NCBI GenBank assembly: GCA_944373145.1 | Contig: CALWAL010000007.1 | Location: forward strand, 26,005 to 90,004 | Length of the DNA stretch: 64,000 nt | Source of the DNA: an uncultured Bacilli bacterium | GTDB taxonomy: Bacteria; Bacillota_I; Bacilli_A; RF39; UBA660 | Reading direction: 5' to 3' | Shown: piece by piece, positions 42,942-56,913 of the stretch | Layout: every line of letters begins with the position of its first letter | How positions within the stretch are numbered: the stretch's first letter is position 1 | Notes under the pieces: generated by a model | Databases searched by the model: none | Seen by the model: the letters and a program-made list of their open reading frames with translations, nothing else | Told to the model about the DNA's origin: nothing | Translations under genes and position numbers: made by a program

Positions 42942-43005
42942 CTTGACAATGTGATGGTTTTGTGTTAGAATATGCAACATCTCATTGAAAAGGGGGAGAG
43001 TATTT

Positions 43006-44457
43006 ATGTATGAAGAAAGAAGAGATAGCTTTTCAATTAGGGATTTATGTTTACAAATATTATTTATAGTACTATTTGTATTAATTTTAATTATGTTATT
43101 CCCTACAAAAGGCTACGTAAAAAAAGCAATTCAAGATAATCAAGTAGAAGTTCAATCAGGATATGACATAGAACAATTGGCGGTATTATACAATCAAATA
43201 TTTGCTAATAATATGGCAGCTATGAAAGATGCTGCAATCGGTTATTATACAAACGAAAGATTGCCACAAAAAGTAGGCGATACTGACAAGATGACATTAC
43301 AAGAAATGTATGATTTACATTTAGTATTAAAATTATACGATAAAGATAACAAGGCTTGTAGCCCTACTGATTCATATGTTGAAATTACTAAATACGATGA
43401 GGAGTATCGTTTAAAAGTAAATTTAAGTTGTGGTAGTGATGAAGACTATATAATTGTATATTTAGGATGTTACGATTATTGTGAGGCTACAGGTGTTTGT
43501 GAAAAACAAGTAACAACGACAACGCCGGTGAAAAAGCCTGATAAACCATCAAAGCCAAGTGACCCTGATGATAAACCATCAAATCCAGATCCGGAGCCAG
43601 AAGATAAATTATGTGAATATAAGAAGGTTACGGATGGTAAATGGGGAGAATATGGCTCTTGGTCAAAATGGTCAACGGAAAAAGTAACAGAGACTGAGGC
43701 AAGAGATGTCGAAACCAAAACAGAAAAAGTGGTAACTGGATATACAACTGTTAAAAAGAAAGTCGGAACAAAAACAGAAACGTATATTGAAAAGTACACT
43801 ACTTCAAAATATATATCAGGTTATACAACTGAAAAATATATATCAGGGTATACGACTGAAAAATATCAATCTGGAACAACAACTCAAAAAGTAGCAGTTG
43901 GAACTAAAAAAGTTCAAGTTGGTACGACAACCAAAGAAACGGTAAAAAAAGTACCAGCCGGAACAACGACTGTTTATGTGTCTTCTGGTTCAGGAACAAC
44001 TGTTCCTAATAGTACTAGCGAGTATATTTATGTAAAAACAGGATCAAAGACTAGTCAAAGTTGTTCAAGTTGTGCAACTGTAACTACTTATACATGGGAT
44101 AAGTATAAAGTTACAACTGTTTATAAAACAGAAACAGTAACGGAAAAAGTTCCTGTATATTCTGTAGAAACAGTTTATGAGACTAAAACAGTGCCAGTAT
44201 ATTCAACTAGAAAGGTACCAGTATACTCAACTAAAAAGGTACCAGTATATTCAACAAAGAAAACACCAGTATACGCAACAAGAGAAGTTGCTGTATATGA
44301 AAATGTAAAAGTTGCAGTTTATGATACGGTTACATATTATCGTTATAGAACAAGAAAATATATCGGTGGAACAACAGATATTAAATGGAGTACTTGTGAT
44401 CCGGTAGATAAGAACTTAATTAATAAAGGTTACTATTTAACAGGTAATGTAAAGTAA
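43006..44457 (+). CDS. Membrane-anchored surface protein with pilin-like N-domain and repeat-rich beta stalk
   Basis: N-terminal TM, Cys-containing globular part, P/D/K linker and T/K/V/Y-rich repeats. Confidence 0.75.
   Translation: MYEERRDSFSIRDLCLQILFIVLFVLILIMLFPTKGYVKKAIQDNQVEVQSGYDIEQLAVLYNQIFANNMAAMKDAAIGYYTNERLPQKVGDTDKMTLQEMYDLHLVLKLYDKDNKACSPTDSYVEITKYDEEYRLKVNLSCGSDEDYIIVYLGCYDYCEATGVCEKQVTTTTPVKKPDKPSKPSDPDDKPSNPDPEPEDKLCEYKKVTDGKWGEYGSWSKWSTEKVTETEARDVETKTEKVVTGYTTVKKKVGTKTETYIEKYTTSKYISGYTTEKYISGYTTEKYQSGTTTQKVAVGTKKVQVGTTTKETVKKVPAGTTTVYVSSGSGTTVPNSTSEYIYVKTGSKTSQSCSSCATVTTYTWDKYKVTTVYKTETVTEKVPVYSVETVYETKTVPVYSTRKVPVYSTKKVPVYSTKKTPVYATREVAVYENVKVAVYDTVTYYRYRTRKYIGGTTDIKWSTCDPVDKNLINKGYYLTGNVK
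43807..43875 (+). repeat. 27-bp coding tandem repeat (KYISGYTTE)
   Basis: Two near-identical units plus a partial third. Confidence 0.8.
44191..44286 (+). repeat. 24-bp coding tandem repeat (VPVYSTKK)
   Basis: Four consecutive units, followed by two diverged ones. Confidence 0.8.
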
Positions 44458-51761: not shown

Positions 51762-53636
51762 GTGATGATTATGTTTGTTGATTTAGGTGCATTTGATAAT
51801 GAAAAAAATTTATATAATCAGAGGGTAGAGAATCTTAAAAATACTGTAACAAACCCTCAAGTTTTAGAACGACAATTAGAAGAAGAGCGTTTAAAATTTA
51901 AGGGGATTACAAGAAAATACTTAAGTGTGGCTTTAGCGACACTTAAAGAAGTGTTTAATATTGATTATTCTTTATATAAAGTTGGGCGTGATGTAGATGC
52001 TAATTTCAAAACAATTGAAACAACAGTCCAAAAAACCCAAACTGAAATTGTTAATGATATGAATGAATTTGTCAAGAAGGCTAATGGGATGAATTTAGAG
52101 GCATATAAAATTAATAAATTAAATATTGCTATTAGGGTTATTATGTCTTATGTTGATGATGTGGCTATTAATGAGGATGAAAATAAAGAGTTTTATTTGA
52201 ATCACTCTAAAGTAATTGCAAGTTCAGTAGATATGCCAGTAACTAAAAAAGTTGAACAAGCGCCTCAACAACCGGTGACAGTGCAACATAATCCATATGC
52301 TAATCAGCCACTAAGCCCCGGAACATTGTCGCCTCAACAGAAAGTAAATAATGAGCCCTTAGTTGATCCTTTTGCTAGTATTTATGCTGGAACTATGGTA
52401 ACCACTCCGGCAACTACGCCATCAGGTCAACCAATAACTACTAATAATACTTCGAGTGTTTATCAAATGAATAATCAGCAAACGATATCAATAAATGAAA
52501 ATAATGCAGGTAATTCAACATCTATATTTGGTGATACTTTCCAATCTTCAAATGAATATTCGAGTTTAGAGCAAACATCTCAATCACAAAATTTTGTTAA
52601 TCAATCTGCACCAACGGTCAATAATAGTTTTGGTCAGGTTGTTAGCAACCCTAGTCCTAACCCGGTTTTGAATAATCCTTTTCAAGATCAAATGAGTAAT
52701 GCCTATCAACCAACTGTGAATAATTTTGCAAATTCTAATGTAAATAATAATTATAATCAAAATAATGCGATGTTTAAACAATTATTAATGCCAGATGCTG
52801 GAATGACCAGTTCTATACCAGCACAAGCAACTCCGGAAATAAATACTAGTAATTTAAATCAAGCGGTGTCAAATCAAGTTGTTATTCCAAATCAAGATTT
52901 AATTAAAACAAACAATATTGTTTTAGGTAGCGAAAAAATTGCAATTGTTTTTCAAATTATTTCGGCTATATTGATTCCAATTTTATCTTTAATAAGCGCA
53001 GCCTGTTTATATTTTATCTTAAATTCGGACGCTATTAATAAGTTTATAGCTGATATGCCTAGTGCACTTACAAATATAGCTTTATTTTTAGTAATAGCAA
53101 CTATTTGTCTTTTATTATCAGGCCCAATAATAGCTTTAGCACGTAAACGAACTGCTTATGTTGTGCGATATTTGATTGCTCCAGCGTTATTATCAATTCC
53201 TACTATGAATTTATTGATGGAATTGGTAGGAAAAATAAAAATTGATTCTATGGAAACAATGACACAGATTATAGGAATTTTAGTAATTGCAATGCCTATT
53301 TATTTTGCGTTTATAATATTTTTATTAATTCGTGGATTTGTAAATGGAAATGGCGATGTTCGTATTCAAGCCCCAAAATGGACTATTTTTGATAAGTTAG
53401 GAATGCTATTTGTCATCTATTTTTTAGTCATACCAGGTATTTATATGATTTGTAGTATTATAGGTTTAAATATTAAATTTTTAAATGATGCTTTAGAAAT
53501 TATTTATTTTACTAATAATGAAGATATTTCACAATATATAGAACCATTGTTTACTATTGGGTCACCAATTATAGCAGCATTAGGGATGATTCTTAGATCT
53601 ATTATTATTTTTAAAAATAGTAGAAAAAGGGCATAA
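51762..53636 (+). CDS. Hypothetical protein with N/Q/P-rich low-complexity middle and multi-TM C-terminus
   Basis: 624-aa ORF with about six TMs at the C-terminus. Confidence 0.7.
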   Translation: MMIMFVDLGAFDNEKNLYNQRVENLKNTVTNPQVLERQLEEERLKFKGITRKYLSVALATLKEVFNIDYSLYKVGRDVDANFKTIETTVQKTQTEIVNDMNEFVKKANGMNLEAYKINKLNIAIRVIMSYVDDVAINEDENKEFYLNHSKVIASSVDMPVTKKVEQAPQQPVTVQHNPYANQPLSPGTLSPQQKVNNEPLVDPFASIYAGTMVTTPATTPSGQPITTNNTSSVYQMNNQQTISINENNAGNSTSIFGDTFQSSNEYSSLEQTSQSQNFVNQSAPTVNNSFGQVVSNPSPNPVLNNPFQDQMSNAYQPTVNNFANSNVNNNYNQNNAMFKQLLMPDAGMTSSIPAQATPEINTSNLNQAVSNQVVIPNQDLIKTNNIVLGSEKIAIVFQIISAILIPILSLISAACLYFILNSDAINKFIADMPSALTNIALFLVIATICLLLSGPIIALARKRTAYVVRYLIAPALLSIPTMNLLMELVGKIKIDSMETMTQIIGILVIAMPIYFAFIIFLLIRGFVNGNGDVRIQAPKWTIFDKLGMLFVIYFLVIPGIYMICSIIGLNIKFLNDALEIIYFTNNEDISQYIEPLFTIGSPIIAALGMILRSIIIFKNSRKRA

Positions 53637-53663: not shown

Positions 53664-54281
53664 TTATAATTTACGATATAATCCAATTGCTCTTCCTAAA
53701 ATTGTCACGTTATTTAAAATTATTGGTGCCATCGTATCATTTTCTGGTTGTAAACGAAAATAATTTTTTTCCTTATAAAAAGTCTTGAGCGTTACTTCAT
53801 TTTCTTCTGTCATAGCTACAACAATTTCACCATTACGCGCTACGCTTCTTTTTTCAACAATAATAATATCGCCATCGTGGATACCCGCATTAATCATACT
53901 TTCACCGTTTACTTCTAAAGTAAAAACTTCTTTACCTTTGGGTATTAAATATGATGGTATTGAAAAAAAATTATCGGGATTCTCAATCGCTTCAATTGGA
54001 GATCCGGCTGTTATTTTTCCTAATAATGGAACTTCAGCAACCTGTTCATCTTTATTATTAAATTCGTTATCAACCATTAATTCAATTGTTCGATTTTTAT
54101 TCGAACCTTTTTTTATGTAACCTTTATCAGCTAAACCATCTAAATGTGCCTGAATTGTAGCTGGGGAGGAAACGTTCAAAGCCTCCGCTATTTCTCTTAC
54201 GGTTGGTGGATAGCCATGTGATACAATATATTCTTTAATAAACTGTAAAGTATCTTCTTGGCGTTTAGTTAATTTTTCCAT
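53664..54281 (-). CDS. lexA: SOS repressor LexA
   Basis: GYPPTVREIA, ITAG cleavage site, GESM (Ser) and TLK (Lys). Confidence 0.96.
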   Translation of the reverse strand: MEKLTKRQEDTLQFIKEYIVSHGYPPTVREIAEALNVSSPATIQAHLDGLADKGYIKKGSNKNRTIELMVDNEFNNKDEQVAEVPLLGKITAGSPIEAIENPDNFFSIPSYLIPKGKEVFTLEVNGESMINAGIHDGDIIIVEKRSVARNGEIVVAMTEENEVTLKTFYKEKNYFRLQPENDTMAPIILNNVTILGRAIGLYRKL

Positions 54282-54305
54282 ATATTCCTCCTTAATACTA
54301 TAGTT

Positions 54306-54345
54306 ATTTTAACACATTCAATTGTAAATGTCAAACAAATGTTTG
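54306..54345 (-). promoter_or_regulatory. lexA sigma-A promoter with overlapping SOS box
   Basis: Minus strand TTGACA (54334-54329)-17 nt-TAAAAT (54311-54306). The palindrome CAAAC-aaat-GTTTG (54332-54345) overlaps the -35. Confidence 0.78.
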
Positions 54346-54364
54346 ATAATGTTAAGAAAAAGCG

Positions 54365-54393
54365 TTGACACGAATATTTGTTCGTGTTAAAAT
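54365..54393 (+). promoter_or_regulatory. Sigma-A promoter with an SOS box in the spacer
   Basis: TTGACA (54365-54370), spacer carrying CGAAT-attt-GTTCG (54371-54384), then TAAAAT (54388-54393). The Bacillus consensus is CGAAC-N4-GTTCG. Confidence 0.85.
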
Positions 54394-54417
54394 AAATTTA
54401 AAGATAGGAGTGATAAT

Positions 54418-54564
54418 ATGAATTTTCTTAAAAATAATATTATGGGATTGGTTTTCATTATAACGGTGTTTAGTATTACTTGTTTTGGTGCTTGGAGTAA
54501 TGCAAAGATGGAATATAATAGTCACATAGAGGAAGAGGAATATTTAGAAATAAATTTATATTAA
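54418..54564 (+). CDS. 48-aa single-TM microprotein, SOS-regulated, in the YneA/SosA position (absent from the ORF track)
   Basis: AGGAGTGA RBS. Sequence is MNFLKNNIMGLVFIITVFSITCFGAWSNAKMEYNSHIEEEEYLEINLY*. Confidence 0.72.
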   Translation: MNFLKNNIMGLVFIITVFSITCFGAWSNAKMEYNSHIEEEEYLEINLY

Positions 54565-54623
54565 GAATATTTATTGTTTTTTAAAAATTTGATATAATGT
54601 ATTAATATGATAGGAGGAACAAG

Positions 54624-56603
54624 ATGAATGATAATATGTTAGTAGCAAGTATTAGGGGACTTGGAATTGACATGATTAATCAAGCTAAATCTGGGCATCC
54701 CGGAATTGTTTTAGGCGCAGCGCCTATTTTGTATACATTATATAAAAATCATCTAAATATTAATGCAAGTGATAGTACTTGGATTAATCGTGATCGATTT
54801 GTCATGTCGGCTGGTCACGGTTCTGCACTGCTATATTCAGTTTTATTTGTTTGTGGATATGGAATAACAATTGATGATTTAAAAAATTTCCGTCATATAG
54901 GGTACAAAACTCCTGGACATCCTGAATATGGAATAACGCCTGGTGTTGATTGCTCAACAGGACCGTTAGGGCAAGGAATTGCTAATGCTGTAGGAATGGC
55001 TTTAGGACAAAAAATTTTGAAAGAAAGATATCGAATTGATCAATCAAAATCATTAGTTGATTATGATGTTTATGCTTTAGTTGGTGATGGCGATTTAATG
55101 GAAGGTATTTCTTATGAAGCTTGTTCACTAGCTGGTACTTTGAAGCTTAATAATTTAATTGTTTTGTATGATTCTAATGGAATTAGTTTAGATGGGCCTA
55201 CTTCTAAAACTTTTAACGAAAATGTTCGCGCTCGTTTTGAAGCTATGGGATGGGATACTTATCTAGTTAAAGATGGTAATAAGATTGGAGATATTGATAA
55301 AGCTATAAGTAAGGCTAAAAAGTCTAATAAACCATCTTTAATTGAAGTTAAGACGGTTATTGGTTATGGCTCTATGCTAGCTGGAACTTCAACTGTTCAT
55401 GGTAAACCATTAGATGATGCTGATATTGAGCAATTAAAAAAACAGTTAGGTTTACCAAATGAACCTTTTTATGTTAATGTAGAAGAATTTAGTCATTTGC
55501 GTAATCATATTGCTAATCGTGTTAATCCAAAATATATGGAGTGGAATGATAACTATCAAGCTTATGTACGCTTATGTGGTGGTGATTCAACTTTAGCTGG
55601 CTATTTATTTAATAATGATTTTAATTATGATTTAATTAATTTAGATTGGAAGTTTCCAACTAGTTTAAAGCAAGCTTTACGTGATACTAACAATGTTTTT
55701 ATTAATTATTTAAATCGCAACATTAAGACCATTGCTGGAGGGTCAGCTGATTTAGCATCAACGACTAAAACATATGTAAAAGAATTAGCCGATATTGATG
55801 CTAATAATTTTAATGGTAATAATATTTGGTTTGGGGTTAGAGAACATGCGATGGGAGCTATTTTAAATGGTATGGCTTTAGTAGGTGTCAAAGCTTATGG
55901 TTCAACTTTTTTAAGTTTTGTTGATTATTTAAAGCCGGCTATGCGTATGTCAGCTCTTATGAAATTACCTGTTATTTATATTTTTACTCATGACTCTATT
56001 TCTATCGGTCCAGATGGCCCAACACACCAGCCTATTGAACAATTAGCTCTTATGCGTTCAATACCGGGAATGAAGGTTTATCGCCCAGCTGATGCCAAAG
56101 AGTTACTAGGCTGTTGGCAAGCAATTTTAAATACTAATCATAACCCAAGTGCATTAGTTTTAAGTCGTAATGAGGTTGATTTGTTAAAGGAGTCAAAAGC
56201 TTTAGAAACATTAAACGGAGGTTATATTTTACATCATGAAACAACTGCGTTAAAAGCAATTTTAGTAGCAACCGGAACTGAAACTCACACTGCTTTGCAT
56301 ATTGCATATGAATATGAACGTGCAGGTGAAGGAGGAATCAGAGTTGTCAGCATGCCTTGTTTAGAAAAATTTTTAGAAACTGATCAAAATTACCAAGAAA
56401 GTGTATTACCACCAGGATATCGAAAGATTATTATTGAGGCAGGCAGTTCTTTTGGTTGGCATCGGATTATGAAAGATTATGATGGTATTATTTCTTTGGA
56501 TACTTTTGGTGTTAGTGGCACTAAAGATGAAGTATTGCAAGCTATGAATTTTAGTTATCAACAAATATTTACTCGTGTACAAGAATTACTTGTTAAAAAG
56601 TAG
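54624..56603 (+). CDS. tkt: Transketolase
   Basis: [40 protein letters not shown] and THDS...DGPTHQP. Confidence 0.96.
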
Positions 56604-56694: not shown

Positions 56695-56913
56695 ATGGGT
56701 CTTTTAGTTGATGTATTACAAATATTAATTGGTGTTGTAATTGGCGCAGTAATTGGATTTTTTATAGCTCGTAAGTATATGAAAAAATATATTAAGCAAA
56801 ATCCTCCTATCAATGAACAGATGATAAAGGCGATGATGATGCAAATGGGAAGAACACCAAGCCAAAAACAAATTAATCAAATGATGAAATCAATGACTAA
56901 GTATATGGACTAG
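56695..56913 (+). CDS. yneF: UPF0154/YneF-family small membrane protein
   Basis: TM followed by [29 protein letters not shown]. Start at ATG 56695 behind AAGGA. Confidence 0.9.

Follow-up and report, generated by a model that had tools for sequence, protein, structure and literature searches.

A gene for a 48-residue, single-helix membrane peptide lies divergent from lexA in a 64,000-nucleotide stretch of DNA from an uncultured Bacilli bacterium (contig CALWAL010000007.1; this whole stretch is called the window here), and its promoter carries a LexA-type box between the −35 and −10 elements. We favour the view that the peptide is an SOS-induced membrane inhibitor of cell division, a positional analogue of YneA and SosA, and put the probability of this at roughly 0.55. 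The case for division inhibition is an argument by analogy from position, regulation and architecture: as far as can be judged from sequence, the peptide appears to show every trait of the Gram-positive SOS division inhibitors, its lineage makes peptidoglycan, and copies in prophages sit at the position of host-division blockers. The kind of gene is well known, while the peptide family itself is without a name or model; no description of it was found in the literature searched, and neither Pfam nor NCBIfam, as scanned, holds a model for it. What is new here is the correlation between the gene and a second LexA box, the retention of boxes by displaced copies, the statistics on selection and profile matches, the map of conserved patches, and the prophage relatives.

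The peptide gene and its LexA-type boxes

The start codons of lexA and the peptide gene are 136 nucleotides apart and point away from each other, with the following elements in and around the intergenic region:

54418–54564, + strand: gene for the 48-residue single-helix membrane peptide (residues 1–7, N-terminal segment with one lysine; 8–27, hydrophobic helix; 28–48, polar acidic tail ending LEINLY)
54406–54410, + strand: ribosome-binding site AGGAG of the peptide gene, 7 nucleotides ahead of the ATG, read directly from the sequence
54365–54393, + strand: promoter of the peptide gene (−35 TTGACA at 54365–54370, 17-nucleotide spacer, TG at 54385–54386, −10 TAAAAT at 54388–54393; 11 of 12 consensus positions)
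54371–54384, no strand assigned: LexA-type box CGAATATTTGTTCG filling the spacer of that promoter, one mismatch to CGAACN4GTTCG
54332–54345, no strand assigned: lexA-proximal LexA-type box CAAACAAATGTTTG, overlapping the lexA −35 element by 3 nucleotides, two mismatches to CGAACN4GTTCG
54306–54334, − strand: lexA promoter (−35 TTGACA at 54334–54329, 17-nucleotide spacer with TG, −10 TAAAAT at 54311–54306; 11 of 12 consensus positions)
54285–54293, − strand: lexA ribosome-binding site AAGGAGGAA, read directly from the sequence
53664–54281, − strand: lexA, 205 residues (Pfam LexA_DNA_bind, 1.3e-23, and Peptidase_S24, 6.9e-34, both full length)

The open reading frame (ORF) at 54418–54564 translates to MNFLKNNIMGLVFIITVFSITCFGAWSNAKMEYNSHIEEEEYLEINLY, and the lexA translation shows the A-G cleavage motif (ITAGSP), the GESM serine and the TLKTF lysine. 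CGAACN4GTTCG is the published LexA box of Bacillus subtilis and Staphylococcus aureus (PMC9578287), and the CAAACAAATGTTTG box is presumed to be the autoregulatory operator of lexA. The original prediction for this DNA, made from the letters of the window, had proposed a 48-residue ORF with one hydrophobic helix divergent from lexA, a near-consensus promoter with an SOS box in its spacer, a second box overlapping the lexA −35 element, and the order lexA / ORF-tkt-yneF; all of these elements are found where it had placed them, and the gene order is borne out by the Pfam identification of the neighbours.

Over the window alone, boxes with at most two mismatches are not enriched (7 found versus 6.1 expected), and 80 related loci were therefore gathered for the test. 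Given this chance-level count, a perfect palindrome elsewhere in the window, GGAACAACTGTTCC at 43993–44006, which has the LexA core GAAC-N4-GTTC intact and lies inside the ORF at 42985–44457, is probably fortuitous.

The 80 loci are species-level, were gathered through LexA (63–88% identity), and their sources are without exception uncultured gut Bacilli or assemblies labelled 'Tenericutes'. An ORF of 43–53 residues that has a ribosome-binding site and encodes a single, strongly hydrophobic segment stands divergent from lexA, usually 123–150 nucleotides away, in 64 of them; the family profile located displaced copies about 1 kb away in two more (L062 and L083), for a total of 66 of the 80 species. 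When that profile was run against 6,818 six-frame ORFs from the loci and the window, all significant matches were to the lexA-adjacent ORF or to the displaced copies of L062 and L083. The ratio of nonsynonymous to synonymous substitution rates (dN/dS) is 0.16 in the best-sampled clade (11 species), where third-position changes dominate (900 versus 498 and 243), and 0.23–0.66 for other pairs of orthologues. A search that started instead from the peptide, using its N-terminal motif on metagenome contigs (with alignment A2, alignment A1 being too diverse for the pattern scan), returned nine loci, seven of which have lexA divergent upstream, and in five of these seven a box (one core mismatch at most) lies no more than 110 nucleotides from the ATG; of the two that remain, one contig is too short to tell and the other, L101, has the different context described below. 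The original prediction had made conservation beside lexA a check on its claim, and the ORF does adjoin lexA in related species, approached from either side.

Downstream, the neighbour of the peptide gene varies: it may be tkt, or yneF may follow at once, and one clade has an unrelated gene there; several loci of that clade have an intrinsic terminator directly after the peptide gene. The peptide gene is thus linked to lexA and not to tkt. Because it is kept in 66 of 80 species, has a dN/dS of 0.16 and returns 185 clusters from the protein database (below), we conclude from these sequence comparisons that the ORF is a genuine coding gene. That it is a chance ORF, or a leader peptide merely regulating tkt, is very improbable. 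The ORF is short and without a family match, and no terminator was found between it and tkt in the window, but the gene persists where tkt is absent, there with a terminator of its own in several of the loci printed, and the conservation data effectively refute this explanation.

The boxes are concentrated beside lexA to a striking degree. Of those with at most one mismatch in the 80 loci, 53 fall within the 20.8 kb immediately upstream of lexA and 4 within the remaining 541 kb, a density roughly 340-fold above that of the rest, and two of the four outliers stand ahead of the displaced ORF of L062. Of 65 orthologous promoters, 50 contain the GAAC-N4-GTTC core upstream of the ORF with no more than one mismatch, and 62 do so if two are allowed, so that the SOS box first proposed for the window promoter belongs to a LexA-type operator conserved across orthologues; in the three exceptions the boxed promoter is followed first by an extra gene of 60–68 residues and only then by the peptide gene. 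The same layout, TTGACA followed at once by the box and then by a TGn-extended −10 element, recurs in most of the orthologous promoters printed, the box standing about 43–50 nucleotides before the ATG. On the lexA side, the motif GTCAAAC-N4-GTTYR is seen, although not tallied, in nearly all the printed loci, including most of those without the peptide gene. A second box is missing, at a tolerance of one core mismatch, from all 14 loci that lack the gene; the lexA-proximal one persists in most of them, and the gene divergent from lexA there is tkt, a polA-like gene or another; the displaced copies of L062 and L083 keep boxed promoters of their own. Since the boxes travel with the displaced copies, the second box is missing where the gene is missing, and the downstream gene varies, we assign this box to the peptide gene and not to lexA autoregulation. 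The peptide gene is probably repressed by LexA, judging from the conservation of its operator.

Several of the loci depart from the common layout. At L062:2265–2429, where a gene of 274 residues is inserted between lexA and the peptide gene, the promoter has two LexA boxes, CGAACAATCGTTTG and CAAACAAGTGTTCG. In L045, L052, L058, L095 and L098, a gene of 60–68 residues (MEYYTIKDIQLLTGYS...; about 105 to about 300 nucleotides upstream of the lexA start in L045) precedes the peptide gene downstream of the boxed SOS promoter, the pair forming what appears to be an SOS operon of two genes; the first gene matches no Pfam family and is not similar to an 88-residue gene found ahead of the prophage copies. 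In a clade of rabbit-gut assemblies (L018, L019, L022, L029 and L031) both the peptide gene and its boxed promoter are gone, leaving tkt directly divergent from lexA across about 118 nucleotides with only the lexA-proximal box. In L050, where the peptide gene is also absent, a different gene of 144 residues (internal start at MERIYNKLVRDNIPNII...) is divergent from lexA, and a box-like AAAACAAATGTTTG, about 90–130 nucleotides upstream of lexA, runs into its −10 element; another gene may therefore be under LexA control in the L050 slot.

Peptide architecture and candidate functions

The window peptide has about 20 hydrophobic residues (8–27) followed by a 21-residue tail of net charge −5, and AlphaFold2 models it as a single unbroken helix over residues 8–45, confident in the membrane part (block-mean predicted local distance difference test score of 95 over residues 11–20). 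The family has a median architecture of 7 + 20 + 20 residues, with the hydrophobic stretch (median 20) taken as the run free of charged and amide residues, and a mean length of 47 residues. Its N-terminal segment carries a positive charge in 80% of members and averages +1.3, versus −0.6 for the tail, a distribution that favours an N-in/C-out topology. Conservation falls in three patches: the N-terminus, M-K-E-hydrophobic-L-K-S-K; an aromatic residue (92% F or Y) and a small residue (54% Gly) within the helix; and a C-terminal hydrophobic-x-hydrophobic-Asn-hydrophobic-Lys motif (Lys/Tyr at the last position), in which the Asn is present at 75%. The window protein fits all three (F13, S19 and L43-N46-L47-Y48) and scores 47 bits against the family profile.

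A profile search of 1.84 billion representative proteins returned 185 clusters at E ≤ 1e-3. The 150 listed of these matches are 30–78 residues long, mostly 42–51, the two of 78 residues being one N-terminally extended call and one apparent 3′ extension; among the 147 new sequences returned, 119 are 42–51 residues long, and most of the longer ones are likewise N-terminally extended calls. Matches of the family to Pfam, NCBIfam and PHROGs are at noise level only, no SosA or YneA model is among the NCBIfam matches of its members, and the PDB sequences gave nothing below E = 0.3. Set against these data, the claims of the original prediction about the product fare differently. The acidic tail that it described is a property of the window protein but, with the mean tail charge given above, not a family trait. 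Its description of the peptide as LysM-less stands, since 48 residues are too few to hold a LysM domain, the window protein has no LysM match in Pfam, nor any Pfam or NCBIfam family match, and LysM is not among the 25 listed of the 38 Pfam families matched by 65 members (E ≤ 1). Its label 'unannotated' was mistaken: public gene sets already carry the ORF as an unnamed entry (27 contigs), with relatives labelled 'hypothetical protein'. Members of the family are common across an uncultured gut lineage, and describing them fills an annotation gap in a large gut group with reduced genomes.

The analogy with known division inhibitors starts from the slot that the gene occupies. YneA, SosA, ChiZ and DivS are mutually dissimilar single-helix SOS division inhibitors of Gram-positive bacteria that have an outer C-terminus and are encoded beside lexA, and every characterised small single-helix gene in that slot, including those of Bacilli, is a division inhibitor (PMC6851548). 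SosA of S. aureus resembles the window peptide in its divergence from lexA, its CGAACN4GTTCG-type box, its small size, its one N-terminal helix, its outer C-terminal part (predicted here) and its lack of a LysM domain (PMC6851548). It is, however, 77 residues long with an outer part of about 45, compared with 48 and about 20 for the window peptide, and it is conserved directly behind the helix and, to a lesser degree, at its very C-terminal end, whereas the window family is conserved at the N-terminus, at two helix positions and at the C-terminal end. No relationship between the two is detectable through the family libraries, the only comparison made, and the activity, topology and CtpA-dependent turnover of SosA have been shown experimentally, whereas the window peptide is known from sequence alone.

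YneA (B. subtilis and Listeria) shares with the window peptide the type of SOS box and the single N-terminal helix, and this helix binds the seventh transmembrane segment of FtsW, as those of SosA, ChiZ and SidA are predicted to do (PMC13396833). YneA is about 105 residues long and has a peptidoglycan-binding LysM domain, so that a YneA-style mechanism cannot apply in full to a family without one. A bare helix can nevertheless suffice, as shown by SidA of Caulobacter crescentus, a very small, SOS-induced, membrane-embedded protein without a wall-binding domain that acts on FtsW; it comes from a Gram-negative alphaproteobacterium and has no evident homology with the window peptide. SidA has only 29 residues, its LexA box is of the form GTTCN7GTTC, and its gene is not known to lie beside lexA.

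Coupling these comparisons with the layout of the locus, we propose the following sequence of events. In undamaged cells, LexA bound to the box at 54371–54384, between the −35 and −10 elements, would block RNA polymerase, and LexA on the second site at 54332–54345 would autoregulate lexA. DNA damage would lead to self-cleavage of LexA, for which the A-G site and the Ser/Lys motifs are present, and to release of a short transcript with a strong ribosome-binding site. The 48-residue product is expected from the positive-inside rule to insert with its N-terminus in and its tail out; its helix may then dock on the septal wall-synthesis machinery, for instance the SEDS polymerase FtsW or its partners, by analogy with what has been shown for YneA, while the outer tail of about 20 residues, with its conserved C-terminal end, might add to inhibition or tag the peptide for proteolytic turnover, as proposed for SosA. 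The presumed class of target exists in the lineage, because a SEDS-family gene (FtsW/RodA/SpoVE, PF01098; L091:3776–4927) is located some 5 kb from lexA in a relative with a family member; this gene and a Mur ligase gene that adjoins yneF in the window (Pfam scan) are our grounds for stating that the lineage makes peptidoglycan. If the peptide is an inhibitor, a LysM-less family averaging 47 residues, with three short conserved patches, would offer a minimal case for studying what stops septal wall synthesis.

A number of observations weigh against a division inhibitor. Inhibition by YneA requires the LysM domain, and the helix on its own localises but leaves division unblocked (PMC13396833); a LysM-less 48-mer therefore cannot work exactly like YneA. 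The 14 of 80 related species without the peptide gene near lexA fall into several separate groups, so the gene is dispensable or replaceable. The middle of the tail is poorly conserved across the family, and the N-terminal 25–27 residues also resemble a Gram-positive signal peptide. LexA binding, which the proposal presupposes, is deduced from the boxes and their conservation, and as for expression, the six public runs that hold the locus are even-depth assemblies that look like DNA, and no run labelled RNA holds it.

The resemblance to a signal peptide underlies one alternative, in which residues 1 to about 26 would be a Sec signal peptide and the C-terminal five or six residues an extracellular DNA-damage 'alarm', processed like Phr, PapR and AimP. 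The Lys-rich N-terminal region, the hydrophobic region of 16–20 residues, the mid-helix Gly (54%) and the small residues that close this region (at column 38 in 73% of members) would suit such a secreted pro-peptide, as would a variable middle followed by a conserved C-terminus with its Asn (75%) and three noise-level NCBIfam matches to the signalling pro-peptides NprX and PhrA. The family has no consistent A-x-A site, however, and the −3 residue of the window protein would be Phe or Cys; the MKE-hydrophobic-LKSK motif and the 92% F/Y within the hydrophobic stretch exceed what a signal peptide needs; neither the chromosomal nor the prophage copies have an RRNPP-type or TPR receptor gene as a conserved neighbour; and the modelled helix runs unbroken from residue 8 to 45. 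We consider a pro-peptide distinctly improbable.

The peptide could also perturb the membrane, like TisB, DinQ or the Gram-positive type I toxins that combine an N-terminal helix with a charged tail (Fst, TxpA, BsrG and YonT), lowering the membrane potential and slowing growth or promoting persistence after SOS induction instead of acting on the divisome. Its size, its one helix with a polar tail and its LexA-type operator all fit this idea, TisB and DinQ of Escherichia coli being likewise LexA-boxed genes for very small hydrophobic peptides; the NCBIfam YonT model gives a noise-level match (E = 0.1) to one family member, and the early-operon location of the prophage copies would also suit a toxin or an exclusion protein. 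TisB and DinQ, though, belong to type I toxin-antitoxin loci, which have antisense RNAs and leaders that are long and structured, and type I toxin mRNAs are translationally locked, unlike the short-leader transcript of the peptide gene, whose leader is only about 18 nucleotides long with a strong ribosome-binding site. Antisense promoters are not enriched 3′ of the ORF (65 loci; mean best score 8.68 versus 8.72 in shuffled sequence, a weak test confined to consensus promoters), sense-strand promoters being the ones enriched there. The hydrophobic stretch of 20 residues, the conserved outer C-terminal motif and the use of the lexA-adjacent slot by division inhibitors in Bacilli likewise speak against a membrane toxin, which we regard as unlikely.

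Finally, the gene may encode a damage-induced membrane protein with some other role, such as an adaptor or regulator of a membrane protease, of a transporter or of a competence function. Only regulation and architecture are established for the family, it matches nothing of known function, and the species without the gene near lexA would be no surprise in this case. There is, however, no conserved partner gene, and the characterised small single-helix genes in the Gram-positive slot are, as cited above, all division inhibitors; another membrane role has only a low probability in our estimate, and a division inhibitor remains the favoured reading.

Relatives in prophages

The peptide of metagenome locus L101, MKEILKSKMMILFAVFILGIVLVDGFQ..., sits in a prophage-type switch: one strand carries genes for an M78 ImmA-like peptidase and a CI-like repressor, and the other, divergently, a Cro-like gene, an 88-residue gene, the peptide gene and then DnaD/RepO-like replication genes. 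It has 22 database relatives with 65–98% identity, and those examined are found at the corresponding position of prophages whose other genes include a serine recombinase, Abi, ERF, NinB and SSB; one of the relatives is in an assembly named Candidatus Fimihabitans. The prophage peptides, 48–49 residues long, are encoded in early operons running from the Cro-like gene to DnaD/ERF/SSB genes:

L101:2280–2426: prophage peptide
L102:6001–6147: prophage peptide
L105:4639–4785: prophage peptide
L103, L104, L106 and L107: further prophage peptides

These peptides share their N-terminus and helix with the lexA-linked family, while their tails are different, unrelated to those of the chromosomal peptides and well conserved among themselves (...KKDLNGVGSQISSQIISKK). 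Profile-profile comparison (hhalign) links the two groups over the N-terminus, helix and juxtamembrane residues with a probability of 96.6% (E = 4.8e-10) against alignment A1 and 98.4% (E = 5.7e-15) against alignment A2, scores to be read with caution, since short hydrophobic proteins can inflate them and the L101 peptide alone reaches 24.5 bits against the chromosomal profile. No LexA boxes are present at the prophage loci. Alignment A2 matched nothing among viral contigs and the prophage consensus peptide nothing among GenBank phages, and the prophage-like contexts are known through metagenome contigs.

The early-operon position is where phages keep Kil-type blockers of host division. Lambda Kil, Rac KilR, Qin DicB and e14 SfiC are prophage division inhibitors of early operons, mostly cytoplasmic and acting on FtsZ; the prophage peptides (alignment A3) are comparable in lying between a Cro-like gene and replication genes under CI/ImmA-type switches, and differ in being membrane peptides with no sequence relationship to the Kil type. 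A tentative extension of the division-inhibitor reading, which we think possible but doubtful, is that the shared N-terminus (MKE-hydrophobic-LKSK) and the helix with its conserved aromatic residue and glycine form a portable, minimal blocker of septal wall synthesis, run by LexA in the host and by CI/ImmA in temperate phages, with interchangeable outer tails that set turnover or potency. If this were true, the peptide would be the smallest Gram-positive effector of a DNA-damage checkpoint, and a single division-arrest module would have been exchanged between the SOS regulon and prophages. The helix module in prophage early operons would in that case link host checkpoint and phage takeover functions, with the prophage copies as natural tail-swap variants.

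Neighbouring genes

Beyond the peptide gene, the window continues with the following context elements:

54590–54598, + strand: probable extended −10 promoter of tkt itself (TGaTATAAT), from sequence
54624–56603, + strand: tkt, transketolase (Pfam Transketolase_N, 4.9e-115)
56695–56913, + strand: UPF0154/YneF-family gene (Pfam PF03672, 9.9e-31)

On the B. subtilis map YneA occupies the same slot, in the order lexA / X ... tkt ... yneF. On the other side, directly 3′ of lexA and convergent with it on the opposite strand, is an ORF of 624 residues (51762–53636) that has no Pfam match, a long Asn/Gln/Ser-rich middle and several hydrophobic segments in its C-terminal part. A weakly similar gene (28–57% identity) occupies the same position in many relatives.

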